DNA of 64,000 bases. It comes from Bilabrum cf. latius. Taxonomy: Eukaryota. This document shows positions 15,808-64,000 of the stretch, piece after piece; position 1 is the stretch's first letter, and each line of letters begins with the position of its first letter. The position numbers and the translations under genes are program-made. Location of the stretch: NCBI GenBank assembly GCA_965178125.1, contig OZ237754.1, forward strand, positions 62,001 through 126,000, given 5' to 3'. The notes under the pieces are model-generated. The model was given only the letters and a program-made list of their open reading frames with translations. It ran no database searches and had not been told where the DNA came from.

Positions 15808-15905
15808 TCAGTATGCTCTTTTGCGGCAACTAACAATCTTCTTCTTTGCAATTTGCAGCACCACAAGATTGAGTGGTGGAAGGTGGAGCAAACGCTTTAA
15901 GATCA

Positions 15906-16739
15906 TTATCGTCCACGACCCCTTCCGCCACCCCGTCCTCGTCCGCCGCCGCGACCCCTGCCTCCCCCACGACCTCGGCCCCTGCCCCTGCCACTGCCTC
16001 CTCTGCCCCTGCCACCGTCGCCGAACCTGCCTGGCACCCGCAGTACCCCACCTCGGACCGGTGCTGAGTCCAGATCCAATGTACCCCCCGCAGCCCTAGT
16101 CTTTCGCCTGCGCTAAGCCATGTCGAAGGCCTTGGAGCGAACCTTGCCCAGCGCGAATGAGGCCCCCGACCTGCTGCGGCTGTGCACCCTGTCCTCCTCC
16201 CTCTCCTTTTCCTTCCTCTTCTTTTCTTGCTCCTGCTGCTTTTTCTTCACGCCGAAAAACATCTTGAGAGGCATTTTTACCTTGTGTTGTACGATTGCAC
16301 CGGCCCTGGACCGCTCCTTCGCCTTCCATATTTCCTTGTCACGGCCTTCCAGTTCTTCGACGCCAAGCTGCATGGCCTCACGCTGAAACTCAATGAACTT
16401 TTTTCGCCTTTCATAGGTGTCTCCATCCTCAGCTAATTCGGCTTTTCTACCCTATCGCTTTCTAGTGTCTTTCCTGGTGCCCCCAGAGCCAGCCTCGCTG
16501 TCGCTTCCGCTTCCGGCGGGCTCATCGTCCTAATTCGCAACCTTACGTTTTTTCTTTATTTGTTCAGCCGCGGCACTAGCACCACCGGCCATTCCCACGC
16601 CCGAGTAGTCCACTTCAACTATTTTGCCGGCAGTCGCATCGTTCTCGACAACCTGTGCTCTCTTGCGCTTCTTGGCCCTTCTTTTCGGAATGAACCCCTT
16701 TGGATCGTCGGATAGTGCATGTCTTGACTGCGAGAGCAT
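15906..16739 (-). CDS. Basic nucleolar-type protein, possibly FAF1/DUF4602-like SSU processome factor, with RGG tail
   Basis: Track ORFs 16530-16742 and 16113-16373 join through TAG at 16530, 16452 and 16113. Contains KVKMPLKMFFGVKKKQ, GGVLRV and RGG repeats; ends TAA (15906) directly followed by TGA. Confidence 0.65.
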
Positions 16740-16874
16740 CAAACCCGACCGTCACGCTATGGAAACGACTGTGCAACGCCGGTTGACTTGCAGTTGCACT
16801 TTCGTTCCTTGCGCGAAGGTTCGTTTCAACTACCAGCCCCTTGATCCGATCAACGGAGGGGCTGTGCCCGGCAG

Positions 16875-19019
16875 TCAGTGTTCTGCCCCTCCTCCCCCTG
16901 CCTGCACTCCTGCGTAGTACCCGCTCACCATGGCAGCCACGATCCCGCGGAATGCGCCGGCCGCATCCCCTGCGACCAGCAGGTCGGGGCCCCCCTCAGG
17001 CTGCCCCTTCGCCTGCCTGCCGTCGTCACCCTCTGATCCACGGGAGCCCCCCGGCCCCGCACCGACCTAGGTCATCTCCTCCATGCACCACAGGCTACCT
17101 CTCTCTCGCCCGTCCAGATCAGGATACCACCCCACGCCTTCCAGCGTGGGCAGCGCCAGACCCAGCAAGTTGCCCTCCGATTCATGCCCCCCTTCTGCAC
17201 CCGCTGCACCCCCATCTTCGCCCCCAACTTCCTTGGCAGAAGCACCAACTAAACTTCCCCCTGCCTCCTCCTGTCCCTCCCAGCGCATCAAGCCACCGAC
17301 TGTTCCCCCGCCTGCCCCTGCCTCCTCCAGCAGCGCCAGTCCCAAGCGCAGCAGCCCGGCCCCGTGGCCCCCGTATTCCTCCTCGATCCTGGGGTCGAAT
17401 GGGCTACGGGCATAGACCGCCCTGTGCTCGTGGCTACTCGAGCCATGGAACATCCGCATATCGTGGGCCACAGCTCGGGCCATGCTGTGGTCCAGCACCC
17501 TCACGTTGAAGCCCATGTTGTGCAGCACGCCGCCTCCTGCTGACACCCCTGTGGAGACCGTTTCCTGCCCTCCTACGACTGGCTCGAACTTCGCTCGCAG
17601 CTCCTCCGCAGCCCGCAGACTCCCTTCCTCCGACAGATCCCCCCGCCCACTCAGCAGCAGCGAGCCGCCGCCCACATCCGCCTCCACCACATCCCCCGCC
17701 CTGCAGAAGCAAAAGGTGCGCCATTCCACCCAGCCCTCGTGCAGCACCCGGGCTGCTGGGTCTGCACCAGCACTTGCACCTGCACCTGCATCACTTCCAC
17801 CTCCATGGCCACCGCTATCGCCAGCTAGCTCCACAACGCCGCCGGCCAGCAGCCGCACCCGCCGCCGAAGCACCAGTTTCGGATCCAGCTGGTGCGACTC
17901 GAGAGCGGCGAACAGCGGGGCGCTGGGGGGACCCACCACCCGCGCCCCGTACTCCAGCCGGCGAAACTAGGACCGGAGCCTGAGTCCAGAGGGAGAGCCG
18001 TCGAGGTCATGATCACCATCTGCCACGTCTCTCGCGCGTGCTTGCAGTGGCGATCCAGTGCCTTTCGCTGCCTCACCTCTCAGCATGGCTGTGCCAGCAC
18101 CCGGGGAAGGCCCCCTTGCGATGTCCTGAACCGAATCACTCTGCATCGGCCAGCATCTGCCGCCCGCGAGGATCACCCGATTGCAGCGGAGTGTGACAAG
18201 CGGTTCCAACGCCTAACTCGCACCACCACCACAACCGCTGGCGCTTCTACTAGCAGTGGTGACTCCCTCCGAGTCTATCCTCTCCGCGCTGGAATCGAGA
18301 ACTGGTCGAACCGGCACCTCCCAGCCCCTGCCACCGTCCAGGCACCGCCGAGGAGTCCCCGCCCAGGCCCCGGTGAAGATCCAACCGTGGGGAGCTGCCG
18401 ACACTGGCAGAGCGAGCGGGTCGCTTGGCTGGTCTCCGCTTCGTCGGGACGCTGCCGATTCCACTGTCCTCAAATGCTCGCGCAGCTGCTGCACCCCTTG
18501 CTGCGAGAGAGGCCCCGTCGGCCCGATCTCGTCGCAGAGGCGCTGCACCATGGCCTCGCGCCCCTCCTGCCCGATGTAGATGCTCGGATAACGCTTCAGC
18601 TTCCACGACCCGATATTGGCCGCATCGGGGGCAGTAGAACTAGCGAGACATTTAGTCGGCTTCAAAGCAGCTTCGGGGAAATCCGGAACCGCCGAGGCAT
18701 CGTCCGCATACGTTCGCAAGACCCCAGCTACCCAGCCGTAGCTTCGACGGAGGATTCCGCTCTGACTGAGATTCCACAGCTCCGTGGCAGATGGGAAGAA
18801 GCTAAACTTTCCATCGCTCCACGCTCCTGCACCACCGCATCCCGAAACTGAATCAGATGGACGGTCGCGAGAGCGTTCTCGAAGGGCTGGACCTGCCTCC
18901 AGCACCACGACGCTAGATGAACCCGATTCCAAAGCACCATGCGCCGCAGCCAGCCCCGCAGGCCCCGCACCTACTACGACAACATCAGATTTGATAATTT
19001 GTCCCGCCTGATTCCACAA
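16875..19019 (-). CDS. FAD-dependent oxidoreductase (start uncertain; in-frame ATG at 19091 or an upstream exon)
   Basis: VVVVGAGPAGLAAA, GCGGAGAWSDGK, VILAGGR and C-terminal LVAGDAAGAFRGIVAAMVSG. Joined through TAG at 18213, 17967 and 17067; TGA at 16875. Confidence 0.85.
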
Positions 19020-19317
19020 AAGGCGCCTAGGGAGACACCAACGGAAGGGCGTAGTCTAGCGACGCCAAGCTCCCCCATAAATGGCAATCATTGCGGGGAC
19101 ATGCCGCACAAAGGAGCCCTTCATATGCTTAGCTTCGGTTGTCAAACGCTTAGTTGACCTTCATACTGATATAGTACGAAGATGGATATGATGGACCCAT
19201 GTCAGGTTGCATTCAAGCATCTTCATCTTCACTGTGTGACAGATTCAATAATGAAGATGAAGCACGTTTCTGGAACATCAGCGCAATATCATACTTTGCT
19301 CTCTGCTCCTTTACAGA

Positions 19318-21021
<1,704 letters not shown>

Positions 21022-21148
21022 ATCGGTGACCGAGACCCGGAACCTCCAAAACCGGAACAATCTGCGGATTCGCAAAATTTCAGCTATAGGTCGGTATTAC
21101 TGCGGTTCCCGTTGCGTTTCGCCGTTGGATGTGTGATTTGTGCTAACA

Positions 21149-24100
21149 ATGAACAGCTTGGCAGGAACCCGTGCAGCCTCTCGATGGTTGCGGTCGCACA
21201 CGCGCCTGTTTCACACCATGCAACGGAGGCATCGTTCAACTCAAGCCTTCACGGCAGCCCAGCAAGCGATTCGCTCGGGGTTTATGAAGTTGGTTGATTC
21301 AGGTGGTGACGTTACCCTGGACTCGACTACCAGCTAGCCGTCCATTGCAGTGATGGACACTTCGTGCAATCCGCCTACGCTTTGCCACGAGGCCATGCTG
21401 CTGAGAGCTTTCGACAAGGTAGGCGCACGCGCTGGAGTCATTTTAGTTAGTAGCTCAAATGCCGATAAGGCATCTGCGGCTGGTCATGGCTCTACTCTAG
21501 CGAAACGGCTGGGCCTAGCGCACGCAGCGGCCTCCAGCGTCATGCGGCAGGAAGCCTCGAGGAAGGTTGCTTGCGCTGTGACCGACACCCCGCTGTTTGT
21601 CGACAAAGCAAAGATGCTAAGAAGGGCGCTGCAACCAGGACAAGAAGCAATGTTTCTCTTGGGTGCCGACACGGTCCGCAGGCTGCTGGACCCCTGCTAC
21701 TACGTCGTGAGGGCTCGCAGCGGAGAGGTGGCTGCCGCTGGCAGTGGCAGTAGCAATATCACTGGAAGTGGTGGTCGATCCCTGGTTGGAGCATCGAGTC
21801 TGGCGCACGGAGGGTGCTGCGGGTGCAAGTCCGGCGCATTGCACGCCCGCTCCCGTGTGGACGGTGCATGTGGCAGCCCAGCTGCTGCCGGCAGCCTGCA
21901 CCACGGCCTCGGCGGAGGGGCGGCGCTCCGGGAAGCCGTTGAGGAGCGTGATCTGGCGCTTGAGGAGATGCTGTTTGGAGGGGGGGTTGGCCATGGTGCT
22001 GCGCCCACTGGCAGCGATGGACCTGCCTCCAGTGCAGCAGAGGACTGGGGGTCGGTAGCATCGGCATCGACTGGGGCTGGGACTGGGGTGCGCATTCGTC
22101 TCGTGTGCTTCGAGAGACCCACTGGACCAAATGTTGATGGTGTGACGACTGATCACTTGGATTAGCTCCTTGGTGCGACCAAGCCCCCATCCGCTGACAG
22201 TGCAGCCACAGCCTCGGATGAGGTGCAGATGCAGATGCAAATGTACGCGCCCCTCCCAGCTCGTTTGGCGGGCCAGGTAACCAGGTTGAGGCAGCTCTTC
22301 CTGCGGGAGGACGCGGAATCACCGTTGCTACGGGAGGGGCGCCAAAGAAACGCGGCGGTTCCGCCTTGGGAGGACCTGCCCTGGCTGCAGCGCGTGTGGC
22401 TGGGCCTGGAGCCGGGCAGGGGGCTCTCCTCCACACAGGCCAGGATGGACATCGCCGCGTGGATGGGGGGGCAAAGCGCGGGCTAGAGGGACGAACGGGT
22501 AGAGGATGGGGAGGAGGTGGGAGCGCTGTACCCTGGGGAATACGAGGGCCATGCCAGCCCCTGTCTATCCCCGGAAGTGGACGAGGCCGCACGCCGCTCC
22601 GGCTTGTACGCAGAGACAGACCCAGGTGGACACCGGATGGTGGACAGTGGTGAATAGGCCAAGAGGTTCGACTGGCGATCCGTGGGCTGGGCTGCCTTGG
22701 GTGTGTGCGCATCAGCTGTGCTGCTGCACCTGTGGAAGGGCACTGGGCAAAGCCGAGGGTAGGGCTCAATCCAGTGCCAGGAGGCTAGTCGGCAGCACCA
22801 ATAGAGCCCCTATACCGAACCCAGCCATGACGAGCGCAGCCCCAGCCCCAGCCCCAGCCCCAGCCCCAGCCCCAGCCCCAGCCCCAGCCCCAGCCCCAGC
22901 CCCAGCCCCAGTTCAGCCACGGCATGGTACTCAGCCCACCGCCGCATGCACCGCGGGCGCGAGGAGGGCCGCCCCCGCGCGGGGTACTTGGACGAGGCAC
23001 AGCGAGTGCTGGCCTCTCCGGTCCCTAGGGCGCGGCTGGACCAGCTGGGGGCCATGGTGGGGAGGTGGGCTGCTGGCGCTCGCTGTGTGCCCGCGTCCGA
23101 TCGGTCTACAGAGGACACGGTGCGCTTGTGGGAATGGCCGCGTCCTGACAGCGAAAGGCCGGTGGTAGGGAGTATTCCAGTCGCTGATCCGGCCTTGAGG
23201 GAGGGCGAGGTGCCCAGTCTTCTCAATGGCATCAGTCTGCGGGTATTTGACAGCAGAAGTGCAGCCTAGGTGGAACAAACAGCTGGGATCACGCGCAGTA
23301 TCACAGTGCCTGCCAGTCGCGACGATGTGGATCAGCTCAATCCCGCGCTGCTGGCGGGCCTGCTGCGCGCACATGAGGCCAACGAGCTACGCGAATGGCT
23401 GATGGGGGCAATGAGCACAAGTGCACGAGGGCCTCCCATGGGGGCAATGAGCACAAGTGCACGAGGGCCTCCCATGGGGGCAATGAGCACAAGTGCACGA
23501 GGGCCTCCCATGGGGGCAATGAGCACAAGTGCACGAGGGCCTCCCATGGGGGCAATGAGCACAAGTGCACGAGGGCCTCCCATGGGGGCAATGAGCACAA
23601 GTGCACGAGGGCCTCCCATGGGGCCACGAGACTCGGCGAAGGGCGGGCCCCCGGGCTGGGGATATCACACGCAGGGCAGGCGCCAGCTCGCCTTTGAGAG
23701 CCCTTAGCTGTCGGCCGAGCTGTGGCACAGGGTGACGGCTTAGTCTGGCTCCGGGCTGTTCCCTCGCAGGGTGTGGATGGGGGGCCGTCGGTGGAGGGTG
23801 GCGGGGCTGGGCACGGGTTGGAGGGCCGTGTGGTACGGACAGGGCGCTCGTCACACCTGGCACTGCGACGAGGCTGTGATCGGTGGTGGGCCGAATCCCT
23901 GCCGCTTCGTCCAGCCTCGCGCTGCCAACGGGGGCCCGCCGTCGGACGGTGCTTGCACCAGGGACCATGGCAGCGGGGACACACGCATCACGGTGCGGTC
24001 CACAGAAGGGGGCCTCAGGCACGTCTCGTGCTGCACACTCATGCTGTATCTAACCGCACCTGCGTGCGATGCATCTGGGGGACAAGGCAGCACCAGCTCG

Positions 24101-24685
24101 ACTGCGTTTCGTGGAGGCCAGCTCGTATGGCTGCAGCCAGGCAGCCCGGTGCCGCAGCCGTCCAGCGAGACGCCGAACTGCAAGGCCTAGCAGCAGCCAT
24201 AGCACACACGCCATGCGCTCGGCGTCCTACCCCGCTTGGGGGACGCCGCACTCGTCACATACGACACCCCTCACGCGAGCCTGCCGCAAGCCCCGGCCAG
24301 CACTGGAGGCAGCGAAAGGCCCGGACCGATGAGCGCAGGGCTCGAGGGAGGACAAACCGGCGAGCCAAACTCGTCGTGCTAGCTGGCAGGGAAGGTCATT
24401 CTCCGCGGGGATGTGTGGCTGGAGCGAGAGGAGGGCGAGGCAGACGTGGAAGACGGACGCGGGTCGATTGAGGCTTGCAGCCGTGCGGTGGAGCTGTACC
24501 ACAAAGCGCGCCAATACCGAGCATCTGGGCGATGGAAGGATGCCGATACTATGTTCGCAGAGGCCCTCAGGGGCTCCGAGGCCCCCCAGGCAGGGATGGG
24601 TGCGGCGGAGGCCAATTGCCAGTGGCTGCGGGTACTCCGCGAGTAGCCTTCATATGAGCCAAATCAAAGTAAATCCTCGATCTAA
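21149..24685 (+). CDS. POF1-like nucleotidyltransferase (NMNAT) fused to a 2OG-Fe(II) oxygenase domain, with putative mitochondrial presequence (~1,178 aa)
   Basis: Single frame with about 13 TAG and no TAA/TGA until TAA 24683. N-terminal part: MDTSCNPPTLCH, SNADK, PLFVDKAK, LGADTVRRLLDPCYY. C-terminal part: WRAVWYGQG..WHCD, TLMLYL, FRGGQL, PHAS, KVILRGDV. Confidence 0.7.
22837..22908 (+). repeat. (CAGCCC)x12 microsatellite encoding a Ser-Pro tract
   Basis: Direct read; in frame as AGC CCC. Confidence 0.95.
23402..23617 (+). repeat. 36-bp coding minisatellite x6 (MGAMSTSARGPP)
   Basis: ATGGGGGCAATGAGCACAAGTGCACGAGGGCCTCCC, six identical copies. Confidence 0.97.
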
Positions 24686-24849
24686 ATGCTTAATAGATCA
24701 ATGAATGGGCGTGAGTGTCTTTTTGGCAGCAATATTACACCTGTGGTGCCCAGGTCAAACCAGCATCGATCGGAGCCACGGCGGGGCAGCAGTTTCCGTT
24801 CCGTCGTGGCGGAACTTTTCTGCATTCAATACGAGGAATTTCACCAACA

Positions 24850-26426: not shown

Positions 26427-26684
26427 TTCCTGCCGTAGTGAGATCATGGGGAGTACTCTGTGGCCCAGGTGTGACCAGGGGCGGGGGAATAGGCGCGGCT
26501 TGCGTGCGTGCAACCCCAACAGGACTTCCGTGTGATTCGGTCGGTCTGTTAAGGGTTCAAGCACCAGGCTCTCGCTGCCTGCCTTCGCGTTGATTGTAAA
26601 AGTGCTTGTAGAGGGTTATAGTGCTGTATAATCACTGGATTGCCTCGACTATAGCATTGTCTCGGGCAGCCAAACACTCGCGAC

Positions 26685-28050: not shown

Positions 28051-28207
28051 TACCTTAATCGACGTACACTGGCAGATATCCGAGCCGCGTTTGAATTCGC
28101 CGCAGCGGTTGCAACCGTGCGTTCAACTGCAACTCGCGGCACCAAGCCGCATCCACACAGCTAGTAGAAGAATTCGCAAACCAACTGTACACCAGCATGC
28201 ATGCACC

Positions 28208-29954
28208 TTAGTCATCATCATCGTCAAATAGCGAAGACACAACCCCGCCCATACCCCCCTTTGCCTCGATCAGGCCAGCCCCAGTGGCCGCCCTCGCCTC
28301 CCGCGCCCTCCGCAGAGCGAGCCACTCCTTCACCTGGGCGAGCGCAGCGCTCTCCTCCACCTCCTGGCCGCCCCCATCGGACCCTGCCCCTTCACCCTCA
28401 CTTCCACCCTCCTCCACGCCCCCTTGTTCCCTGGGATGCTCCGGCCTGTCCTCGATCGCGCGCACCACGGCCCCCCCCTCCCCCAGCGGCCTCAGGGCCT
28501 TCTCGAGCAACTTGATGGCGCCGCCCTCGCCCTCGCACGCGCTCTTCCACGCCTTGCTGCTCTTGCCACCGGAAACGACCCACGACAGAAGCTCGATCGC
28601 GTCCGCGTGCGCCTTTGCGTCCTCTGGTGTCCTGATGCCCAGCAGCAGCGCGCTCTCGGTCCATTTCTTGGCCTCGTCGCTCCTGCCCATACGACGGGCC
28701 GCCCTGGCCAGCATCAGCTGGTTCTTCTTCCAGCAGTTGGGCTCCACCCCTTCTGCCCGCAGAAAGCACCGCACCGCATCCGCATAGCTCGCCTCTGGTG
28801 GCGCCCTCACGCACGAGGCCAGGAACCATCGGAACCACCACGAGAACCCCGCCGCATCGTAGTAAAACGTGCCAAGGACGTGGAGTGCCGCCGCGTCCGA
28901 GGGGTCGATCTGCAGCGCCTGCTTCAGTCGATCCTCGGCCTCGAAGGAAGCGTCGATCCAGTCGCAAAAATTCATGTGCTCCCCCGCCGCCAGCAGCACC
29001 AGCCCGCACCACCGCTGGGCCAGCCGAGAGGTGGGGCTGGCTCTGACCGCTGCACGGGCTGCCTCCATCGCGTCGTCGAGGAGGGCTCGCTTGCGGGCGG
29101 GATCCAGGGGCTGGTAGGCGCGCGCTGCCTTGGGCGGCTGTCCCCATGGCCCCTGGGGGACGGCCAGGGGCTGCTGCATGGCCAGGCAGTAGGCTGCCCT
29201 GGCCCTGCGCCACAGGAGCTCAGGATCCACGCCCATGAACTGGGGAGTGCGGCGGGAGCTGCCAGGGGCGAGCCCAAGGGATGGACGGGCGGAGGCAGAG
29301 AAAGAGGAGGACGAGGAGGACAAGGAGGAGGGCGGGATGCCTGCGGGGGACAGCTTGCCGGCCTGCTCGGCGGCCGCGCGGCCCTCCCGCATGCGAGCAC
29401 CCGAGGGATTGGACAGCGACGAGACATAGCCTGCCGCTCCACTTCCGCCTGGCTGAGATCCTCCCGTGAGCTCCACGCACACATCGTACACGAGGGAGCG
29501 AGGGTATTGGCCCGGGTTCTCGTGCATATTATCTGCGCCAGTTCGAAGGACCGTCTTGGCTTGGACAAATGCGGCATACACACCTACGCAGAGCCTATGG
29601 TACAACATTGACGAGGGCACTTTACTTACCAATAAATCTTAAATCTTCAAACGGCACGCTCTCGCAGCTGGACTGGCCTGTACCTGCTGCAGCCAGCAAA
29701 CCAGCGAGGATCGTGCCCGTACCTGCCAACTGCGCCCACCTAGCCCACTAGTCGCGCTACCATCTGCGTTGATAGCAGTTACTACCTATGATTCCAGTGT
29801 CGAATCCGCCACGCAGACTTAGACTAGCTGCCAAACCATCACCCGACGCGATGTGCGCAACTGCAGGCCGCAGCATGCTCGACAACGAGCGGTGAATCCC
29901 GGCCCTCCCCAGCCCTCGAACGGCATATGTCCTTTGTAAGAGAAATTTTTGCAT
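28208..29954 (-). CDS. RMDN1: Regulator of microtubule dynamics (RMD1/RMDN-like) TPR protein
   Basis: complement(join(28208..29532,29630..29954)). PELLWRRARAAY, AQRWCG, ALQIDPSD..HVLG, PPEASYADA..FLRAE..PNCWKKNQLMLA. Two TAG in exon 1; ends DDDDD-TAA. Confidence 0.82.
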
Positions 29955-30138
29955 GGCGGCCTTGATGTGGATTCGAATCGCAAGGATATCTGCGGATCTC
30001 TGTCTCGTCATCACACACCAATCAGTGCACCTCGCGATCCATCCGCTCACGCAGACAAAAGCTTAAACCAATCGCAGCGAGTCTCGCGTTCGCGTAAGTG
30101 CTTCCTATTCTCAAGCTTGCGGGGCGGAGCTGCATCGA

Positions 30139-40507: not shown

Positions 40508-42146
40508 TCACGTGGCCTTGAGGCCCCCTTTCCTGGCCCGCAGGAGCCCCGCCTCCTCGCCGTGCCCCTCACCCGCACCTGCTGACGCACCTTCGGACCC
40601 TGGCACCGACGCGCCCCCGCGGGCTTGGCCTGCATCCTTCGCCCTTGCATCCCCATTGCCCTCCTCGTCTTCGTCCCAGAACCCCCCTCCCATGGCCCTA
40701 GTCCGCCTGACATCCGCAGCCGTGGGCCAAAAGTACCCCGGCGTGCCCTTGGGAATGCTCGTAGATCTTGCCCCGCCAATGGGACCCACACTGTCGTGCG
40801 ATGCACCCTCCGTGCGTGCGACCACCCACCGGGTCATCACGGCGCAGTACCTGCGCCTCGTGTCCAGCGGCTCCACGCTCGCGACGTGCTTGGCCCCCTC
40901 TAGCACCACGTGCGTCTTGTCCTAGGAGGAGGCCTCGTCGAAGAGCTTGGCGCTCATGGCTGGGTCCGTGACCTTGTCGTCCTCTCCGTGGAATACGATG
41001 AACGGCGTCTTGATGGTAGAGAGGTGCTCTTGCAGCCACACGGTCGAATTGAACAGCTCGAACGCGGTCTTGAGCCTGTTGTTGCCCTTGTACCGGATGG
41101 GGTCGGACCGCACCAGAGGCATGGTCGTGGCGTCCGCGAAGCACCTCTCCAGGTGATCGGGGGCGGGTACGATGGGCGCAGCGGGGAAGAGAGCCATGGC
41201 GACCTTCAGGAGGCACTGCGTGCACTCGGATGGGATCATGTCAGCGGCGATGCCCACCATGGGGGCAAACACGATGAGTCCGGCGGGGGGTGGGGAGAGC
41301 TTCAGGCTGCTCAATAGTAGCACGCAGCCCCCCAGCGACTCTCCGTTGAAGAAAAGCGGCACATCGTCTGTGCTGCCTGCGCCCCGCCCGCCCCCCGCTG
41401 CCTCGCTATCTTCGCCGCTGGGCACCTCTGCCGGGGGTGCCTGCCTGCCTCGTGACCTGCTTCTGCTCCTGCTCCTGCTCCTGCCGCTGCTGCTTGTGCT
41501 TGTGCGGTCTTTCGCCCTCGATATCGTGCCCTTCGCCTCTGCCCGTGCTCTCTCCCGGAGCCTCGGCCGAAACACGTCGTTGACGAACTGCAGCACAGAG
41601 TCCACCACGCCCTCCATTGAGCTGACCAGGCCCTTAGTGCCGCCCGACTTCCCATGGCCCTCATAGTCAATCGCCCCACAGGCATAGCCCAGCTTGTTCC
41701 AAATTGCGGCTTGTCTGGCATACGGCCGATCGTGTCCATAATGCAGATATCCCTGAGAGTTATGGAGTGCGGGTAGTGCGGGGGTTGCAGGGCCAGTGGT
41801 CAAGACAGAGTCGGGAAGCAGACAAGAGCGAACATACATGTTGTGCATGGTTCCTCACATGGAAAAACATGATGGCACCCTTCAGCTTGACGTCTTTTGG
41901 TGGCATCCAGATAAATGTGGCGATGTCGATCCCTGCTGGAGTTCGTATAGACCTCTCATCTGGAACAGGATCGGGGCCCTATCCGTGCTCTTCCCCCCCA
42001 AAAAGCGTGCATGTTCTGCTCTGGTGATGCTTGAAGACCTCTTGCGGCGTCATTGTGGCGAGAGTTTCTGCATCAAGCAGCGCTGGCCGTGGCAGGTAGT
42101 CAGACAGGTGTGTCTCGTTCTCTTCGCTCCTTGCTGATGACGACAT
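40508..42146 (-). CDS. Monoacylglycerol lipase-like alpha/beta hydrolase
   Basis: complement(join(40508..41752,41859..42146)). KGAIMFFHGY, IDYEGHGKSGG, GESLGG, FHGEDDKVTDP, SS[TAG]DKTHVVLEGAKH; TGA stop. Confidence 0.9.
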
Positions 42147-49422: not shown

Positions 49423-50963
49423 TCACCCTTTCGACTTTCGCCTAGACCCCTTCTTGCTCTTGCCCTTGCTCTTTCCCTTGCCCTTGGATGCAGCGCTCCC
49501 CTTGCGCGCCCCCTCCTCCTCCTCGTCCTCATCATCACCACCGTCCATTGCAGCAGAACCAGCCCCCACGCCATCCCCCGAGGCCGAACCAGCAGCTGAA
49601 GAGGCGGCAGGGTCCCCCGCTCGCCCCGCCCCCGCCCCAGACGCAGCCGCGGCGGCGGCAGCCAGCCCCTCCACCTTGTCCAGCGCCGCCACCACTGTGG
49701 AGCACTTGCGGGCCAGCACCCTTAGCGCCCGCTTCACAATCATAGCGGCGGGGAACTGTCCGGCGCTCTCCACTGAGAACTCGAAGTGCTCGTTCTTCCG
49801 CCTGAGCTCAACGAGGTGCTGCCACCCGGGGTGCCGGATGCACTCCCTGCACATGGTGCACTTCCTCACGTCCTTCACGTACGCAGAGTACTCCCGCCCC
49901 CCCGACACATTCCCGACGGGCGCGCCCTCCTCCAACACGCCCTATTCACCTCCCTGCCCCTCCAGCCCCAGCCCAGCGGCAGCCGCCGGATCTGCGTCCA
50001 TCGCTGCCTGCCCCGACCCCGACCCAGACCCGGCACCCCCTCCAACGGCCCTCCCCAAGTCCTCGATATCGCCCGCCACCTCTGTGCCGTCGTCTCTCCT
50101 GCGGCCAAAGACCCCTGGGGCACACATGCTCACCAGACGGTCTGCCAGGTCGCCCCGGATGGGCCTCGAGAGCCGCACGTCGGGCAGCATGCGGTAGGTT
50201 GCGGTGGCCACCGGGCTCCATTTCGCGTGCTCCCTGCCGATGCCCTTGCTGGCGTGCGCCTCAAGCTCGATGTCCTAGGAGGGCAGGAGGCGCGTGATCT
50301 CGATGTCTCCGTGCACCATGCCAACGCCCTTGCAGGTCGCCTCCTGGTCCGGCGTGGACGGCTGGAAGTGCACCTGCGAGCTATACACAGTCGACTTGCG
50401 GTCCGCGGGCTCGCCGTCGCCCGTGCGCTGCGGAGAAGCACCCTTGACGTCGAGAATGAACACCAGCGTGTCCTTGTCGGAAGGGTGCTCGCCAACTTCG
50501 TGAAACCGGGCCGGATCGGCTCGGATGGGCAGAAGACCCAGCCGGTGAGCGAGGACCTCGTCCTGCATCACACCGGTGTTTTGCCGGATGTACACCTGCT
50601 CAATTGCCATTGTCGGTACTTCTGAAATCATAACGCGCCTGAGTGCGTTCGCAAGTGCCGGTGCGACGCCAACGAGATCAAAAACAACCTTGTCCGGGGA
50701 ATCGGACAGTATCCGCACTGACAGCTTCGACCGAAGAACTTCCAGGAACTGGCGAGCATCACCCGGACTGACAGAGTACTCCTGCGTGCAAGCAGTATCA
50801 CCAAATTATGCTGGCCACGCGTGTTATGCGCCTTGATGGGAAGCCTGCTGTACAATTGCCTTAGTGCGGTATCACTCACTTTCTTGGTACCATGCACTTC
50901 CAGCCTCGTGTGTGTGGCCTTGGTACGACGTGCCAAATCAATCGAGGAGGATGTTGCACTCAT
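49423..50963 (-). CDS. POLR1C: RNA polymerase I/III subunit AC40 (RPC40)
   Basis: complement(join(49423..50781,50880..50963)). ALANALRRVMISEVPTMAIE, QDEVLAHRLGLLPI, [TAG]DIELEAHASKGIGREHAKWSPVATA, CTMCRECIR, HFEFSVES. TAG at 50275 and 49942; TGA stop. Confidence 0.95.
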
Positions 50964-53312: not shown

Positions 53313-55244
53313 ATGAGAAGAATCGCTACTACCCAGCACTACGTGCGATTGTATAGAGGAGTATCCAGGAGCGTCGCGAGTCGAATGCGGCTGCGGCTCT
53401 AGCCGCTTCCTCAAGCTCTGATTGGCATGATGCGACCGATGTCATCTGCCGCCGCCCTGAGCCCTACCGCAATGAATGCCACTGAGGGCCAGCTTGTCTC
53501 GCTCCGTGGTGTCGTATCCAAGGTGATCTACAGCTCTGCAGACGGCGGCTATGGCATTGTGCAGCTCAAGGTCCAGTCGTACGGCGACGCCTAGGTCGCG
53601 CAGGACCGCCTAGCTTCCCAAATGCAAGGGGTAAATGCATCTGCCTTCGGGATTGCCGGCACTGCCGCGCAAGGCCCGGGAACACCTGGTGGCGAGCCAG
53701 CCGAGCGGCAGCTGGCGAGCCCGAACGAATCTGTCACCGTGCAGGGGGGACCGCAGGTCGCTTCCATGCAAAAAGGAGAACTAGTCAATATTGAGGGTAG
53801 CTGGTAGAAGCATCGCCGCTACGGGATGCAGGTGAAAGCCAGTGCGGTTCGCGCAACCCCACCAGATTCAGCCGACGCTCTTGTTCGATTGCTGGGCAGC
53901 GGATCATTCAAAGGGATCGGACCGGTGCTAGCAGGGCGGCTTGTGGAGTAGCTAGGCTCGAGTGGTGCGGTAAAAGCGCTTGGGGAGGGGGATCATGCAG
54001 CCCTTGCCCGTGTTCGCGGGATCAGCGCTCGCATTGCGCGCGAGGCAAGTGCTCGGTGGCGGGCGCGCTCGTCAGGTGCCGAGTTCGAGGGGCTGTGCGC
54101 GCGCGTCGGCCTCAGCGCATCTGCCACTGCCCGCCTTCGGCAGGCGTTTGGCGGGTCAAGCGAGGCGATGGAGGCGCTTCGGCGAGACCCGTACGGCGCG
54201 CTAGCGAGGGTCAAGGGGCCCGGCCTGGGCCTGGCAGTTGGAGACAAGATGGCAAGGGCGCTGCACGCGGGAGGCGATGGAGGCCAAGATAATACCCAGT
54301 CGTAGCAAGCAGCAGAGGAGGTGACAGACCTCTCTAGAGGCTCCCCAGGTGCCGGCATGGAGGGGGGGGCAGGGGGCGCCACCAACCACATGCACCAGGG
54401 GGGCGCAGAGGGAACACACAAGGGGACGACACCTCAACCGAACCGAGGACGAGGGCAATCGCAGGAAAGCACCGCGACCGTCGCTCCGGATGCGCCCGCT
54501 CCTGGTGACCCGCTGTACGGCCCCAGGGTCCGGTCCGCGGTGCTGCAGGAGGCCAGGCAGGGCATGCTCCGGGCGGGGCACTGCTTCCTGCCCGCAGGGG
54601 AGCTCCTGCGGCTGGGGGCAAAGGCGGTGCTGCCGGGAGCATGGCGGGGGAGAGCAGCACGCAAGAGCAGCGGAGCGAGCGGCGGTGGGGATGGGGATGG
54701 GGATGGGTTGGTTCCGCTCGCACAGGTGCTCATGGAGGGGGTCCCGAGCGCCTAGCCTCGCGACCAGCAGGTCGGCTCCGACTCGGAGCCGAAAGTACCC
54801 AGTGCTGCGCGCGATGAAGACGCGGCGGGTCTGATTCGTCGGGCGATGCTGCAGGTGCTCGAGGCGGAGGGTGTGGTGGAGGTTGCTGGCCCTGGTGGAA
54901 GCACAAGCGGGGATGGGGCGATCGACCTGGACCAGGCCGTGGATGGTTCCTCGGGCAAGGTCAGATCGCTGGCAGCGAGCGCAAGGGGCGTTCTGGATGG
55001 AGTCAGGGGAGGGCAGCTGCACGTGCAGGCAGTGATGGGGGGAGCAAGGGACAGCACCGACGAGTCGGGGGCCGCTGTGATCGCGGTGTCCTTGGCAGGC
55101 ACACGGCGCACCGAATAGGCTGCAGCAGCCGCGGTGGGGCGGTTGGTGGGCTCGTTTCTGGAGTCGGGAGCTCGATTGAGGACGCACGGGGGCACCCAGA
55201 CGATCCTCGCCGGGGATGCGACCAGCAAGGAGGAGGGAAAGCAG

Positions 55245-55300
<56 letters not shown>

Positions 55301-58088
55301 GGGGTAGGAGCAGCGCGATGGTGCCTAGCCGAGGGCATCGGGCAAGGGCAAGGACAAGGGTGAGTCAAGGGAGCTCACCGAGGAGCAGAGGGCAGCAGTG
55401 GACACGGCGCTCAAGTCTCCCATCGCGGTCATCACCGGTGGTCCGGGGACAGGCAAGACCACCGCAGTGAGGGCGGTGGTGCAGGCCTGGCTGAGGCAGG
55501 GGCGGCGGGTTGCGCTGGCCTGTCCCACCGCCCGCGCGGCGCATCGACTGAACGAGGTGTGCAGCGGCATCTTGAGCGCATTTCAGGCCGAAATGGCAGC
55601 CTCGGCAAAGGGCATGCGCGGGCAGGGTCCGGCGGTCGCCCTCGCCCAGGCACCGCACGCTGTCACCGTGCACCGGCTGCTGGGTTACGGCATCAGCTCC
55701 GAGTCCCCAGCGGGACTGGCCGCTCAGGCCCGGGCCGATGCACTGGCTCGCGGCGAGGCCGTGCCTGCCTTGTCCGGTGAGAATGCGGGTCCAGGATCAG
55801 GGTTGAGGCGGCGGGGCCGCGGACAAGCGGACAGCTCGACGCTGCCGCAGGTAGGTGCCCTGTCTCTCGGGAGACAGCTCGGCGGTGGGGGCGTGGGCAT
55901 GGGCATCGCTGGCGGTTAGGGCACCATGGGGGATGAGGGCGGGCCAGTGGTGGATCTGGATGGAGAAGGAGCGTATAAAGGTGTGGGTGGGATGGAAGGC
56001 ATGCGGGATGGCTATGGTGGTGCGCCTGGCAATGGAGGACTAGGTGTGGGGCTGCCAGAGCAGACGGGGGGTGGGGAGGGGGAGGAGGAGGATGACGGGG
56101 CGGCGGAGATGTCGATGGATGCTGCTGCTGGGGTTGTACCTGGTTCACAAGCGGGAATAAAGGGCAAAGGCAAAGGTAAAGGAAGCTCCCACGGGCCGTT
56201 CCTGTTCCATGCCGACAACCCGCTGCCCTACGACGCGGTGCTGGTGGACGAGGCCAGCATGCTGGACCTGAACCTAGCGCGGGCGCTCATCGAGGCGCTG
56301 CCCGTGCCCAAGGTGGCGGACGGGGAGGTACCGGGGGCACAGGAGGGGGTCAATCCAGGGAACAAGCGAGGCGCCCCCAGCCTCATCCTGGTGGGCGACC
56401 ACGATCAGCTGCCCAGCGTGGCGCCGGGGCGGGTCCTGCGGGACATGGTCAGCGCTGGGGAACAGAACCAGCAGGATGGTGGCGCCGGTGTGACGAGCGA
56501 TGCATCCGTTCAGTTCCCAGTGGTGCCTGTGGCCCGCCTGCAGCGCATCTTCCGGCAGGCGGCTGCCTCCTCCATCGTGAGGAACGCGCACGGCGTGAAC
56601 GAGGGCAAGGGCCTGGTGGCCGTGCACGAGCTGCCCCTTGATCTAGGCTCTCGGTAGGCAGCCGGGGAGCAAGAAGGAAGCGGGGCCGCGGCCGGCAAGA
56701 GCAAGTGGCTGCTGCCTCTGCCGAGCGAGACGGAAGAGGCGCTGAGGGCAGGTGTGCGCGCGGCCAGGACAGGCGGGGCTGCACCCGGTGGCCCTGCAGC
56801 CCCCGCCCCCACTTTCCCCTCCCTGACCGAGTTCCCACCTCCCGAGATGGACACACTCTGGATCGACGCCGAGGACCCAGCAGGTGCCGCCCGCAGACTT
56901 CGAGAAGACGTGCCTGCCCTGGTGCGAGCCATGGGGCTGGAGCCAGAGGAGCACCTGCTCGTCATGTCGCCCATGCGGAGGGGGCCTCTGGGCACCAACC
57001 AGCTGAACGAAATGCTGCGGCCCGTGCTGCGGAAGCGCGATGCTCGCGGGGTGCAGAGAGATGCCGATGGCGCTCCCTCGGCAGGCCGATGGGGGCAGGA
57101 TTCCGCACCCGCGGTGGGTGTGGGGGACCGCGTGATGCAGAAGAAGAACAACTACGACTTCGGGGTGGTGAACGGGGACGTGGGACACGTGGCAGATGTG
57201 GGCACGGACGGGTCAGTGCTGGTTGTGTTCACCTCGCCTGCCCCCCAGATCGACGGGGTACCCCAGGGCGGGGGGGGCATGTTCGGGGGGCTGTTCGGGC
57301 ACGACATGCGTACGGTGCGGTATTCCGCGGCAGAGGCGCGCAGGCAGCTGGAGCTGGCCTACGCTGTGACCGTGCACAAGGCGCAGGGGAGCGAGTGGCC
57401 AGTAGTGGTCGCATGTGCGCACACCTCCCACGCGCCCATCCTCACGCGCGGCCTGCTGTACACGGCGGTGAGCCGCGCCCAGCGTCTCCTCGTGGTGGTT
57501 GGCTCCAGGCGAGCCGTGCGCATGGCCGTGAACAAGGACGCAGAGACGAGGAGGCACACCATGCTGGCGGGAGACGTGCAGCGGGCCGTGCTGGGTGCCA
57601 TGGCCGGGGCGGGGAGGCCCCTGCTAGAGGACGACACGGGTGCCAGTGCCAGTGCCAGTGCCAGTGCCAGTGGCAGCAGTGCAGCTGCCACGGGGCTGTC
57701 GCCACTGGCAGCCTACGCCAGCATGTGCGGGGCCATGGGGGCCGGGGAGGGGGAGCACAACTTCGTATAGAGGGTGGTAACAATCGATGACGAGATCAGC
57801 AGGGCCAGGGAACAAGGCGGGGGCGCCGGCCTGGGACTGGCAGCGGTGCCCGCGGCGGACCTCGTCGGTTCCACGCCTCCTATTCAATCGAATGGCCCGC
57901 GCGGGGACAGCCGGGCAATGCATGGAATGGAAGACCAAAGGAGAATGCCGATGGGTCTTTCAGGCCTGTCACTGCGGCGGAAGGCGCAGTCCCTGCTGAA
58001 TGCAGACGTGGACGCGGCTCTGGTGAGGCGGGGCCAGGAGAAGGCTGCAGGATGGGCGGTGGAGGTGCGCGCCGGTGAGAGGCAGTAA
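53313..58088 (+). CDS. recD2: RecD2-like SF1B DNA helicase with putative mitochondrial presequence (~1,591 aa)
   Basis: One frame, 12 TAG, TAA at 58086. RecD2 N-terminus GVVSKVIY..GYGIV..IEGSW.KHRRYGMQ..GSGSFKGIGP..DPY; helicase motifs ITGGPGTGKT, TVHRLL, VDEASM, LVGDHDQLPSV, RIFRQ, GDRVMQKKNNY, AYAVTVHKAQGSE, LLYTAVSRA. Confidence 0.9.
55245..55298 (+). repeat. (CATGGG)x9 microsatellite encoding a His-Gly tract
   Basis: Direct read, in the RecD2 frame. Confidence 0.95.
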
Positions 58089-59275: not shown

Positions 59276-59425
59276 TGTTCTTTGCATCTATGTCGCGCAC
59301 GCTATCGGATCTTGGTAGCGAGCAATTACTGCTTTCCTCCGAGTCGGGGAGCGTAGCACGGTGTCGGCCGATGATCGGCCACTACCCATCTCTCTACTAT
59401 TCGACAAGCAATTCGCTGGGCAAAG

Positions 59426-60983
59426 ATGAAAAGTTTTGCGTGTTTCGCTACATTCGTTGTGACCGCTGCGGTAGGATCCTCGCAGCATGCCTCTGGATCC
59501 TATCCCGTGCGTCCCGATTGGCAGCAAGTCGTCGCGATCAGCCGAAGCAAGGCGAAACAACACAATCTCCCTACTTCCGGTCCCACACCAGGGCCTACTG
59601 GATTTGCCGTATCTCCGGCGTAGTTTGGCGGAGATCCGCTGGGCCAGAAGGACTCCACTGCGGCTGTTCGTGCAGCTGTTGCAGTGTGCGTCAACGTCTC
59701 CCAAGTAGAGCCGCTGGACTTCCCCGTCGGCACCCGCGATGCCGCTGGTTGCACGGTGGATTTGCAAGGTGGTGAGTATCTCATCAGCGACACGATTCAA
59801 ATCCCTGCGTTTGTCGGAAACATGCAGATGTCCCGCGGGTCGCTGCGCGCATCCTCATCATTCAAGTCGGGGGCCTTCATGGTGGTGGTTGGGGTGGAAG
59901 GAGCGTGTAAATTCCCTTAGGGGTCATGTAATGTGGACATCAATTTCCCAGACCTCTTTTTGGACGGATCCCGCGTGGCGCACGGCCTGCTTTAGATCAA
60001 CAGCGTCATGGGCACAACGGTGGGCCCTGGGACGTACATGCTAAACTTTACAAGCGCTGGCATCGAGGTAAATGGTGGCCATGAAGTTATGATCTTGGAG
60101 ACGTGGCTCGGCGAGACGAACTGGAACCACCACTTCACCACGGACGCGCCTCCGGTCGCGACCGCCATCGCAATCAACAGCAACGACCACTACATCCAGA
60201 ACTCTGTCGTTTTCTCCTCTCTCGTGGGTCTCGACATGAGGGGCGCTGCGAACTACGTGAGAAGAATGGGCGCAGGTTGGAAGCTCCCATTCTATCTGCG
60301 ATGTGCCACTGCACCATGCCGCGGCGCGGAAGCCCACACATCCTGTACGCTTGTCTTTTGTTCTGTTCAAACCCATGCAGGTGTCTGGCCTCCACGTCTG
60401 GTTTCCGTGGAACGCAGCTGATCAGTTCGGGGCCACTGCATTCCAGATCTCGGGTGGCCAGAACCGCTTCTCCGGCTGCTACATCGACTGCTCCAAGGCA
60501 GTGATCGCGCAAGGGGCGGGGCTCGTAGAGTTCTCGGACGGTTTTTCGCTCGGCGGGATCGGCATCGTGCTCGATGGCGCCAGCTTCGAGAAGCTGCAGA
60601 TCTACGACAACGAGTTCCAGGGCGGATCGGGCCCCGGGATCGTCGTGCCCTCTGGCGGTCAGCAGAACGTGACCCTCGTGGACTCCAGGTTCCAGAACAA
60701 CCTATTTAACGGCAAGCAGGGCAGCGCCACCAGAGTCACAAAGACGGTCGCTTCCACCACACCGACCACGAGCTGGAAGGCCAGCTTCTGCCAAGAGATC
60801 GTGGGCAAGGTCCAGTCGGTGCAGTTCAGCGTCACCGCAGACACCGGCTTCCCGAGCGTGGTGGCGCGGCCAGTCGCCGCCGACGGTTGCACCGTGACGC
60901 TCGAGTCCCAGACTGCCTTTACCGGGTCCATCACCGTGTCGGTGGACTCGAGCACGTATTCGAGCAACTGCGGGCTCTGTTGA
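59426..60983 (+). CDS. Secreted pectate-lyase-superfamily beta-helix protein (QRT3-like)
   Basis: join(59426..60256,60381..60983). Signal peptide; [TAG]FGGDPLGQKDSTAA, VDLQGGEYLISD, GSLRAS, GGHEVMILETWLG, NDHYIQNSVVFS, CYIDC. Three TAG; TGA stop. Confidence 0.8.
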
Positions 60984-61094: not shown

Positions 61095-63221
61095 TCACAC
61101 CTTGCTGCTCGACTCCTCTACCGCACTAGCACGAGCTATTTCCAATGCGCGCCCCGCATCGTCAGCCTCCTTCTTGGTCTGCACCTATAACTCAGGCTCA
61201 GGCTCCCACCCGCACCACGCCAACACGAGCGCGAGCGCAAGCGCTGCTCCGTAGGCGGCTGGCAGCAGCCCAAGCGCTGCATCGTACGCGCCCTCGCTCC
61301 TTTTGACGTCCTTGCCATCGGCCCCCGGCCCATCGACGGCATCCAGGACCGCACCCACCGCGGGCTGCAGCACGGCCCCGCCCACGATCATGCCCGCGTT
61401 GACCACGGCGATCACCACCCCGCGGTGGGGGGCCGCCCACTCCGCCTTGGTGGCCGCCCTAGTCAGCCGAAACACCGCGGGAATCACGGTGGCAGACCCG
61501 AAGAGGAAGAGCACCACGCCCATGGCCGGCCTCCCCAGCGCATCCACGTATACGAGTGCAGCCGAGGACAGGCCCCCCAGAAGAGCCGCCCCCGCTGCCA
61601 CCGCGTGCATGCTCCAGGGGGCTCGGTCCAGCAGCGCGCCCACCAGCGGCCCCGACAGGCCCCAGCCCACAAGATACACGGACATGAGGACAGACGCCTG
61701 GGCCCCATTTGCGCCCTTGGTGTCCTTGAGGAACGAGTTGCCCCACAGCGACCCGAAGGTTAGGAAGGGACCGACAATGAGGATCCCATAGGTGAAAATG
61801 AGCATCACCCTGCCGCCCAGAAGCAGCCCGATCGTCCCCATGAGCCCCTCGCCCTCCAGACCGCAGTCGCTGGTGCCGTCCCCCGCGCACCTCGAGCCGC
61901 AGGTGGAGACCCGGCCCGCTGCCGTGCTCATGCCCTTGTTCTCCGCTGCTGCATGTGATGGAGGCACCCCACCGCTTCGATGCGGCTGTTTCTCCTCCTC
62001 CTCTTCCTCCCTCTAGTTGGAGGGTAGCCCTGGGATGGCGGCAGGGGAAGGAGGCCAGGCGATCGGCGGGCTGCCCTGCCCGGACTGGACGAGGGGAGGC
62101 GTGGCATCTGCCTGCACGAGCGGCACCTGGCTGGGGGTGCGGCTGGGTCCTGAGGCTGCGGTGTAGGGTGAGGATCCTTGTCCCACGGGCTCCGCACCGG
62201 CCTCTGACTTGTTCTTCAAGTTCGCGTGCCCCGGGGTGCCGCCACCCACTGCCTGGTTCCCTGGACCGCTGGCATGCTCCACTGCCTGGTTCCCTGGACC
62301 GCTGGCATGCTCCACTGCCTGGTTCCCTGGACCGCTGGCATGCTCCACTGCCTGGTTCCCTGGACCGCTGGCATGCTCCACTGCCTGGTTCCCTGGACCG
62401 CTGGCATGCTCCGCTGCCTGGTTCCCTGGACCGCTGGCATGCTCCGCTGCCTGGTTCCCTGGACCGCTGGCATGCTCCGCTGCCTGGTTCCCTGGACCGC
62501 TGGCATGCTCCGCTGCCTGGTTCCCTGGACCGCTGGCATGCTCCGCTGCCTGGTTCCCTGGACCGCTGGCATGCTCCGTTATGTCACTGCCCTCGGCAGA
62601 GGCTGTGCGGCACACTGGCAGGCAGCCAGCGTGGATCGACCACAGCACTAAGAATGTAGCACCAATGCCGACAGGAAATACAGAGCTCCACCCAAGCACC
62701 GGTCTCCAGCCCAAGTTTTCCACAAGGACCGCAAGCGGTGCCTGGGCGAGGAGGCTGCCAGCGAGCCCGAACATTATGCCCGCACCGGTCATTGTGCTAG
62801 CAAGGCCGCTTGCTTTGAAATGCGTCTCGCTGAGCGTCACAACTCCAATCCAAGCTCCACCGACACCGGCGCCGACTAGTCCTCGAGCAGCTGCCGCCAG
62901 TGCAAAGGAGCTCGTGGAGGCAAACCCCAAAGAACCAAGCGCTGCAGCGAACGCACAGCCTGCAAGTACGGGCAGGTGTCCGAAGCGCTGAAAGGCCCAC
63001 CCACATGGCAGCTAGACTGCAATATACGCATAGAAATACGTGGAGGAAAGAACGCCAACGGCGGAGCTATCAATTTTGTAGGCGAGCTGCAGGTCGTCCG
63101 ACACGACCGAGGGCGCCACTCGCTGGAAGAAACTATACGTAAAGAAAAGGGATGCAACCAGCCATGCTACCCAAATATCAAGGGGTGGGAGGTTCGATGT
63201 CGAGCTGCTCGTGGCTGCCAT
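61095..63221 (-). CDS. Major facilitator superfamily transporter (~708 aa)
   Basis: WLVASLFFTYSFFQRVAPSV, GVLSSTYFYAYIAV[TAG]LPCG..RFG, ARGLVGAG, AQAPLA..GWR, FGSLWG, GGAVLQP. TAG at 63012, 62013 and 61185; TGA at 61095. Confidence 0.9.
62246..62575 (-). repeat. 33-bp coding minisatellite x10 (EHASGPGNQA[A/V])
   Basis: CC[A/G]CTGCCTGGTTCCCTGGACCGCTGGCATGCT; five A copies followed by five G copies. Confidence 0.97.
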
Positions 63222-63540
63222 TATGTGGCTAGATTCGATTGCACAACTGTGTCCGTCATCGCTTCGTCACACACCGTGTGACGGCTCGGGGACACACTGT
63301 GGCCAAGGCCGCCAGCGGGCGTGATTGGCGACTTGTCCACCCCTGTGCAGAATAACCATTGCGGCCTAGAATATATCTGCATCGCAGGAGCCATTGACAA
63401 GGTAGCCTCGTTGCAACCATGATCACAGCATGATGGCAATTACTCTGACCACCCCCGGCCAATCCTCGCGCACCTTTGGGGTGCTGTCACTGCTGCACAC
63501 CCGAGCGCAGTATCGCAAGGCCGCACACCCTTAGTGCGGC

Positions 63541-64000
63541 TTATGACCCGCCCCTCCTGCGCCTCACCTCATCCGCGGGGTCCACCTCGGCCCCCGGCTG
63601 CAGCTGCTGCAGCACGCCCACCTCGATTGGAAGGTCGCCGGGCCCCTGCGGCTCCACGCTCCTCCCGTCCGTGAAACCGACCAGCTTCCAATCAAGCTCC
63701 GCCTTGTCACCCTGGAACACCGGCACGCGCAGCCGCCTCAAGTACGTTCCGCTGCGGGGGCACAGCATGCGCAGCGCCCGCGTCCTCCAGCCCATCTCGG
63801 ACTGGTGGTAGGCCATGCCAGGGATGCCCTCCACCTCCTCGTGGCGAGAGGCGTGCTTGGGCTGCTGGATCGCAGTCATCAGGTCCGCCTTGGTGGAGGC
63901 AAAGCTCAGCGCCGGATACGAGAACAGGCTCTGCACCCACACGTGCCTTCCCCTCCACCGCAGGCCCCTCCACGTGCTGTGGAAGGGGTGGATCTCACGG
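63541..64000 (-). CDS. 3' end of an unidentified protein (partial)
   Basis: Frame open from the right edge to TAA at 63541, with GC-rich third positions like neighbouring genes. No family recognised. Confidence 0.6.
   Translation of the reverse strand, partial: REIHPFHSTWRGLRWRGRHVWVQSLFSYPALSFASTKADLMTAIQQPKHASRHEEVEGIPGMAYHQSEMGWRTRALRMLCPRSGTYLRRLRVPVFQGDKAELDWKLVGFTDGRSVEPQGPGDLPIEVGVLQQLQPGAEVDPADEVRRRRGGS

Follow-up and report, generated by a model that had tools for sequence, protein, structure and literature searches.

Does the nuclear genome of Bilabrum cf. latius read UAG as an amino acid while it continues to stop at UAA? The two codons, together termed UAR, almost always change meaning together, and a code that separates them is therefore worth establishing with care. 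The question is raised by a 64,000-base stretch of contig OZ237754.1 (positions 62,001 to 126,000; hereafter the window, to which alone all counts refer), where long open reading frames (ORFs) emerge once TAG is read as sense, and are closed by TGA or TAA. A first-pass annotation made from the letters of this stretch had proposed a code resembling NCBI table 15, and that proposal fits every sequence test that the window allows: the glutamine columns of alignments, the deficit of TAA and the loss of coding signal beyond TAA. We put the probability of a table-15-type nuclear code within the window, with UAG read as glutamine and with UAA and UGA as stops, at about 0.8 on this sequence evidence.

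The window is compact eukaryotic nuclear DNA with some GT-AG introns. Its G+C content is 63.5%, and it carries about 30 genes on both strands, with introns of 97-306 bases. Under standard stops the longest ORF has 1012 codons; when TAG is treated as sense this grows to 2536 codons, and the summed codons in ORFs of at least 300 codons rise from 16,342 to 35,770 (shadow frames included). When TAA is also taken as sense, the longest ORF stays the same and the gains are limited to short extensions. The longest ORF ends in TGA and holds six in-frame TAG and no TAA:

3952..11562, plus strand: longest ORF, 2536 codons, with EF-hand, PH and protein kinase domains

For all codon counts, 20 non-overlapping ORFs were chosen on both strands with TAG read as sense, giving 15,876 codons in total. 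Within them TAG occurs 85 times in frame and TGA never; at least one in-frame TAG is present in 16 of the 20 ORFs, and TAG makes up about 13.5% of the glutamine codons. In their remaining two frames these ORFs contain 74 and 78 TAG, 37 and 42 TAA, and 239 and 187 TGA. As TGA outnumbers the other stop triplets out of frame and is absent in frame, the frames are real. The identity of the amino acid is given by those TAG codons that fall in alignable columns:

20155..20157, plus strand: in-frame TAG of the enolase gene, at the invariant Q of ..QEFMILP..
19837..19839, plus strand: second in-frame TAG of the enolase gene, in a variable column
50275..50277, minus strand: in-frame TAG of the gene for RPAC1 (a subunit of RNA polymerase I/III), in an invariant Q column
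13335..13337, minus strand: in-frame TAG of a Rab18-like GTPase gene, at the catalytic Q of WDTAGQERF in exon 1 (13290-13529)
40922..40924, minus strand: in-frame TAG of a monoglyceride-lipase-like hydrolase gene, at the Q of ..AKSQDKT..

The first enolase column is Q in 113 of 113 aligned homologues, and is Q in the Chlamydomonas and human chains. The RPAC1 column is Q in 120 of 120 homologues and also in the RPAC1 chains u118266 and u118810. The Rab18-like codon pairs with Q in Rab18 and Sec4, the two alignments shown, and to our knowledge the catalytic Q of WDTAGQ is universal among Ras-like GTPases. Against the hydrolase codon, all three chains named monoglyceride lipase have Q; these chains are near-identical and amount to one independent comparison. 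Other TAG codons fall outside conserved columns: the variable enolase column holds K in 104 homologues, Q in six, R in two and T in one, the second RPAC1 TAG falls within an insert, and two TAG of a GH31 gene and one of Rab exon 2 lie in variable or unalignable columns and are uninformative.

It might be argued that the in-frame TAG codons are never translated, and that they mark pseudogenes, assembly errors, unrecognised introns or sites of RNA editing. Nothing specific favours this, beyond the fact that introns do exist here and that one ORF-closing TAA proves to be intronic (see below). Decay or misassembly of this kind is hard to square with frames that are interrupted by TAG only and never by TGA or TAA, or with TAG codons that sit inside gap-free alignments at invariant Q columns. 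Contigs with splice joints also bear on the point. Contigs of sequencing runs X6 and X7 contain GT..AG joints from 19365 to 19672 and from 24897 to 25008, and run X5 has a contig that links 29532 with 29630 across CT..AC (GT..AG when read on the minus strand); that runs X5-X7 are RNA is a guess, and those parts of 14001-34000 that lack X6/X7 coverage carry no information. Both enolase TAG codons are covered by the spliced X6/X7 contigs (those with the 19365-19672 joint), with no other letter and no gap at either. As the spliced contigs keep the TAG unchanged, it is neither spliced out nor edited. For the genes tested the absence of translation is thereby refuted, and as a general account it is scarcely credible. 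UAG is an ordinary glutamine codon of the mature coding sequence, found at invariant glutamine columns.

Some further features of two of these genes may be recorded here. The enolase gene (19666-21021, plus strand) encodes a five-residue insertion (..NEWGWCKQK..) that is missing from the Chlamydomonas and human chains, together with a C-terminal tail 11 residues longer than that of 108 of the 113 homologues; its first codons are in an upstream exon, past a 306-base intron. The Rab18-like gene (12585-13529, minus strand) has at least three exons and ends in TGA after ..GGCCG.

What remains is the meaning of TAA. The 20 ORFs end in TGA 15 times and in TAA five times, and in their 15,876 codons there is no in-frame TAA (95% upper bound 1.9e-4 per codon), which upholds the earlier observation that TAA is absent from the interior of every reconstructed coding sequence. 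The rival account that matters most at this point is that both UAR codons encode glutamine, as in the table-6-type codes of Tetrahymena, hexamitins and ulvophytes, that TGA is the sole stop, and that TAA is just rare at high GC. It draws support from the predominance of TGA as terminator (15 of 20), from a TGA directly after the TAA at 15906, and from a bias against A-ending codons: the pairs CAA/CAG, GAA/GAG and AAA/AAG are used 116/427, 163/728 and 76/400 times, so that NAA makes up 16-21% of NAA and NAG codons taken together. The first-pass annotation had itself cautioned that high GC makes a sense TAA rare anyway. The caution is insufficient, as these same ratios predict 23.1 (glutamine), 19.0 (glutamate) or 16.1 (lysine) TAA beside the 85 TAG, with probabilities of seeing none of 9e-11, 5e-9 and 1e-7, respectively; out of frame, TAA and TAG stand at 79:152. 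With 16-23 TAA expected and none observed, the absence goes beyond what high GC gives. Even when the five terminal TAA are counted as sense, the probability of five or fewer is 1e-3 to 6e-6.

The five terminal TAA were inspected one by one. All are present where the first-pass annotation had placed them, each closing a long ORF that depends on TAG being sense:

15906..15908, minus strand: TAA of an FSAF1-like ORF (15906-16742), with TGA directly after it (15903-15905)
24683..24685, plus strand: TAA of a 1181-codon ORF (21140-24685) with 13 in-frame TAG and no Pfam family
28208..28210, minus strand: TAA of an RMD1-3-like TPR gene (28208-29632, with a 5' intron at 29533-29629), after DDDDD
58086..58088, plus strand: TAA of a RecD/YrrC-like helicase ORF (53313-58088) with 12 in-frame TAG, and with TAG directly after the TAA
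63541..63543, minus strand: TAA of an ORF truncated by the end of the window (63541-63999)

Owing to the adjoining TGA, the codon at 15906 cannot separate a TAA stop from a sense TAA followed by a TGA stop. For the other four, codon usage was scored by log-odds, with the remaining 19 ORFs as training set, and the score was compared between the last 50 codons and the stretch from TAA to the next in-frame TGA, together with the G+C content of third codon positions (GC3). At 24683 the score falls from 0.22 to -0.11 and GC3 from 0.68 to 0.49 over the 94 codons to the next TGA; at 28208 the score falls from 0.45 to 0.03 and GC3 from 0.74 to 0.55 (56 codons), at 58086 from 0.27 to -0.34 and from 0.74 to 0.47 (19 codons), and at 63541 from 0.39 to 0.06 and from 0.88 to 0.71 (17 codons). 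Both measures thus fall in four of four testable cases (GC3 from 0.68-0.88 to 0.47-0.71), matching the drop after TGA stops. Two of the four stretches contain further in-frame TAA. Read-through from 24683 meets two more TAA before a TGA, within the p25-alpha gene (in its first exon and intron), and read-through from 28208 meets one more TAA before a TGA inside the next minus-strand ORF; the earlier claim that reading on at either site would run into the next gene is thus roughly right. Past the TAA at 58086, no frame recovers a coding score ahead of the next gene. If both UAR codons were glutamine, each of the five TAA would have to precede a TGA by 0-94 codons, across a stretch with a non-coding score, and two of these stretches overlap the next gene and hold TAA of their own. 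We regard that account as very improbable, and UAA as a stop in the table-15-type code as much the better description.

An ORF may be closed by a TAA that is not a stop, as one case in the window demonstrates:

12177..12179, minus strand: ORF-closing TAA within a splice donor (..GCTAG / GTAAGA..), intronic

Here the frame of a small membrane protein resumes downstream in another frame. Each of the five TAA was for this reason checked for donor context, and neither GTAAG nor GTGAG is found at any of the five. The TAA at 58086 with its preceding G reads GTAATA, without the +5 G that is present in all five donor sites observed in the window. A further TAA-ended ORF that scores as coding (12562-13308, plus strand) was rejected as an antisense shadow of the Rab gene, and does not add a sixth TAA-ended gene.

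The protein encoded by the RMD1-3-like gene (28211-29530) offers one external comparison. P0241, a Logan-derived protein from another assembly, is 95% identical to it (374 of 395 residues) and terminates at the same residue, ...SSLFDDDDD. A stop-like codon, of whichever kind, has thus been kept at that point in this diverged copy. No homologue of the RMD1-like protein was found besides P0241, and the Pfam domains of the TAA-ended genes finish far ahead of their stops.

Several points weigh against a table-15-type code, and they are gathered here. The sample is one of 64 kb and five TAA stops, of which 15906 is uninformative, and the near-identical P0241 supplies the sole homologue-defined C-terminus among the TAA-ended genes. 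ARAGORN finds no transfer RNA (tRNA) gene in the window, no Rfam family is present, and no eRF1 gene is among the window ORFs scanned against Pfam. TAA was treated as a stop when the ORFs were drawn up, which makes the count of in-frame TAA partly circular. This circularity is countered in two ways. First, the 15 TGA-ended ORFs taken alone (12,200 codons with 57 TAG) should contain 10.8-15.5 TAA and contain none (P of 2e-5 to 2e-7). Second, the TAA of both strands that have 60 codons free of TGA on each side (n = 66) were ranked by codon-usage score on the two sides; by coordinate comparison each of the ten best of the 66 falls in a frame antisense to a gene, and none of these ten has two-sided coding signal in the sense frame of a gene. 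The remaining points concern TAG itself, which is slightly in excess close to the ends of genes: eight TAG fall among the final 30 codons of the 20 ORFs where 3.2 are expected (P = 0.017, uncorrected, and one of four cut-offs), and beyond the last TAG the tails of three of the five genes concerned have a GC3 of 0.53, 0.33 and 0.42, resembling an untranslated region (UTR). TAG may still be terminating in some contexts. The five ORFs with TAG in their last 30 codons are:

118-2658, minus strand: ORF with TAG in its last 30 codons
21140-24685, plus strand: the 1181-codon ORF, in which the TAG at 24644-24646 sits 12 codons upstream of the TAA at 24683
38121-40385, plus strand: ORF with TAG in its last 30 codons
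42580-44637, minus strand: ORF with TAG in its last 30 codons
61095-63221, minus strand: ORF with TAG in its last 30 codons

These tails bring in a third account, in which UAG has a dual role, as in Condylostoma and the karyorelict ciliates: glutamine inside genes and stop near the 3' end of the mRNA, UAA and UGA being stops throughout. Certain tails counted here as coding would then be 3' UTR. The low GC3 of three tails is as this account predicts, and the excess of TAG is not shared by the other glutamine codons, with 12 CAG against 16.1 expected and three CAA against 4.4 in the same last 30 codons. The excess is, however, confined to one of the four cut-offs (one TAG against 1.07 expected within 10 codons, four against 2.14 within 20, nine against 5.35 within 50), and along whole ORFs TAG is evenly spread (Kolmogorov-Smirnov test, P = 0.67). 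Old TAG stops that have merely turned into sense codons predict the same pattern. No gene of the window needs a TAG stop for its end to match those of its homologues, and enolase, Rab and p25-alpha all end in TGA. Analogous codons in Iotanema were judged to be sense in 81 of 81 cases, according to the available part of PMC5304391. A dual role for UAG is unlikely, though less so than a sense meaning for UAA.

Under a table-15-type code, UAA and UGA would both have stayed terminators, with UGA the commoner of the two, as would fit a genome of 63% GC. By the logic set out in the portions of PMC5304391 and PMC11687900 at hand, UAG would be decoded by a tRNA-Gln whose CUA anticodon matches UAG and not UAA, and the cell should lack any tRNA with a UUA anticodon, which would recognise UAA and UAG alike. 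The release factor eRF1 would have lost or weakened its recognition of UAG and kept its recognition of UAA and UGA, presumably by alteration of the GTS, NIKS or YxCxxxF motifs with which it recognises stop codons, the T32G change of Iotanema being an example. Some of the TAG codons found 9-29 codons before present stops may be former stops whose switch to sense made the proteins longer, leaving UTR-like tails.

Codes in which both UAR codons specify glutamine (table 6) occur in Tetrahymena, hexamitin diplomonads, ulvophyte green algae, Streblomastix and Amoeboaphelidium protococcarum. In such systems UAG is glutamine as in the window, but so is UAA, whereas TAA is absent in frame here. Amoeboaphelidium, an algal parasite in which both TAG and TAA reportedly encode glutamine (from the excerpt of PMC6299283), was considered as a match and dropped, since its genomes have about 40% GC in the part of PMC10608142 that includes Table 1, against 63.5% here. 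In Condylostoma, the karyorelicts and Blastocrithidia all or several of the stops occur in frame, unlike the window, where TGA and TAA never do; the double use of a single stop codon, TAG, is a feature that the window may conceivably have in common with them.

Codes that split the UAR pair are few. As described in the extracts of PMC11687900, UAG encodes leucine in a rhizarian and some ciliates and serine in Scotinosphaera, and in one ciliate UAA encodes lysine and UAG glutamate. These cases (the rhizarian exLh and some ciliates; Scotinosphaera; Oligohymenophorea sp. PL0344) share the split and differ in the amino acid, as the invariant columns of the window are Q (113 of 113 and 120 of 120) and not L, S or E. 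The combination of UAG as glutamine with UAA as a stop, NCBI table 15, is given in those extracts only for Iotanema spirale, Protocruzia tuzeti and two phyllopharyngean lineages. The list of split-UAR lineages in the first-pass annotation agrees with what PMC11687900 and PMC5304391 report in their available parts.

Comparison with these organisms reveals both likenesses and differences. Iotanema spirale (Fornicata) resembles the window in having UAG as glutamine, UAA and UGA as stops, UAG at conserved glutamines and no in-frame UAA, as far as the excerpted text of PMC5304391 goes. Its stops are distributed differently, with 104 UAA and 15 UGA (n = 119, same excerpt) against five TAA and 15 TGA in the window (n = 20; Fisher P = 3e-8), and the Iotanema data, in that partial text, are a transcriptome only, whereas the window is a genomic contig of 63% GC. 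Hartmannula sinica, Trochilia petrani and Protocruzia tuzeti have the code table found here, with UAG alone reassigned, which for ciliates is explained by a suppressor tRNA with a CUA anticodon (extracts of PMC11687900). From the same source, stops are most often UAA and least often UGA in phyllopharyngeans, whose GC is 27.4-53.6%; in the window TGA dominates and GC is 63.5%.

The code variant itself is thus already known, but with its high GC and its preference for TGA the organism resembles none of the known carriers. The best enolase matches are 73-74% identical and come from Placididea and land plants alike, while the best RPAC1 matches, from an amoebozoan, oomycetes and plants, are about 40% identical. 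In an RPAC1 tree of 66 rows the query sits on a long branch (1.16) without a supported partner; this tree holds the best RPAC1 matches only, none of them named as a ciliate, and has no bearing on ciliate affinity. A tblastn search of metagenome contigs with the 1181-residue orphan ORF gave no match, and one with enolase gave 80 loci, the best of them 66% identical and none a close relative. An EGF/GH43-like protein yielded no usable taxon from a protein atlas. In the full text of open papers we found no description of UAG as glutamine with UAA as a stop in a GC-rich organism other than a ciliate. It is conceivable, and we hold it tentatively as somewhat short of an even chance, that the window represents an independent and undescribed origin of this code in a GC-rich, long-branched eukaryote outside ciliates and fornicates, the first with UGA as main terminator, and a recent one given the putative ex-stop TAG codons that precede the new stops by 9-29 codons, with their UTR-like tails.

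Should the lineage prove new and the origin independent, the case would be of real specialist interest. Each further independent case tests the idea that a suppressor tRNA with a CUA anticodon lets UAG drift free of UAA, and shows which changes in eRF1 accompany split UAR codes. Set against the AT-rich ciliates, a GC-rich genome is instructive: one would expect TAG to have served fairly often as a stop until its meaning changed, which makes 'codon capture' through disappearance an unconvincing account in this case, and many proteins must have acquired C-terminal tails. Annotation with the standard code would fragment most genes, as 16 of the 20 ORFs could not be read through.

The gene content of the window is varied. 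A Pfam family scores above its curated cut-off in 13 of the 20 ORFs: the EF-hand/PH/protein kinase protein, Abhydrolase_2, an FAD-binding oxidoreductase, enolase, p25-alpha, the RMD1-3-like TPR protein, a two-repeat ion channel, the monoglyceride-lipase-like hydrolase, GH31, RPAC1, a PA/PDZ protein, the RecD/YrrC-like helicase and an MFS transporter. Further ORFs contain Swi3, CGI-121, a beta-helix, a ZIP transporter (below cut-off) and the Rab GTPase. Three genes are split by introns into ORF pieces in different frames, and in the Abhydrolase_2 gene the Pfam match ends at 175 of 217 and is followed by a junk-like tail; for all four the stop codon was taken from the last ORF piece only:

47579-49278, plus strand: ZIP transporter gene, split
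59375-60983, plus strand: beta-helix protein gene, split
26685-28122, minus strand: Swi3/Tipin-like protein gene, split
14341-15807, minus strand: Abhydrolase_2 gene

Lastly, the window contains repeated sequence and signs of a second copy. Between 17336 and 18002 the word depth in four runs is 1471, 2702, 411 and 213 against about 0-12 in adjoining bins, an increase of 20- to 250-fold in each run, which suggests a repeated or low-complexity stretch within the FAD-oxidoreductase ORF. Many contigs in the runs that bear the window are only 90-99% alike to it; for 14001-34000 in run X1, 33 of 87 contigs are 95-99% alike and 45 are 90-95% alike. This second copy in public assemblies, diverged by about 5% and represented also by P0241, could be a diverged haplotype, part of a hybrid genome or a sister strain. 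Near-perfect tandem peptide repeats lie within several ORFs, and short-read contigs break at the last of those listed:

about 23405-23621, plus strand: 6 x MGAMSTSARGPP
about 62246-62579, minus strand: 10 x EHASGPGNQA(A/V), in the MFS transporter
about 43137-43329, minus strand: about 8 x TEHGAGAQ
about 22829-22918, plus strand: run of SP dipeptides, with the contig breaks at 22829-22918

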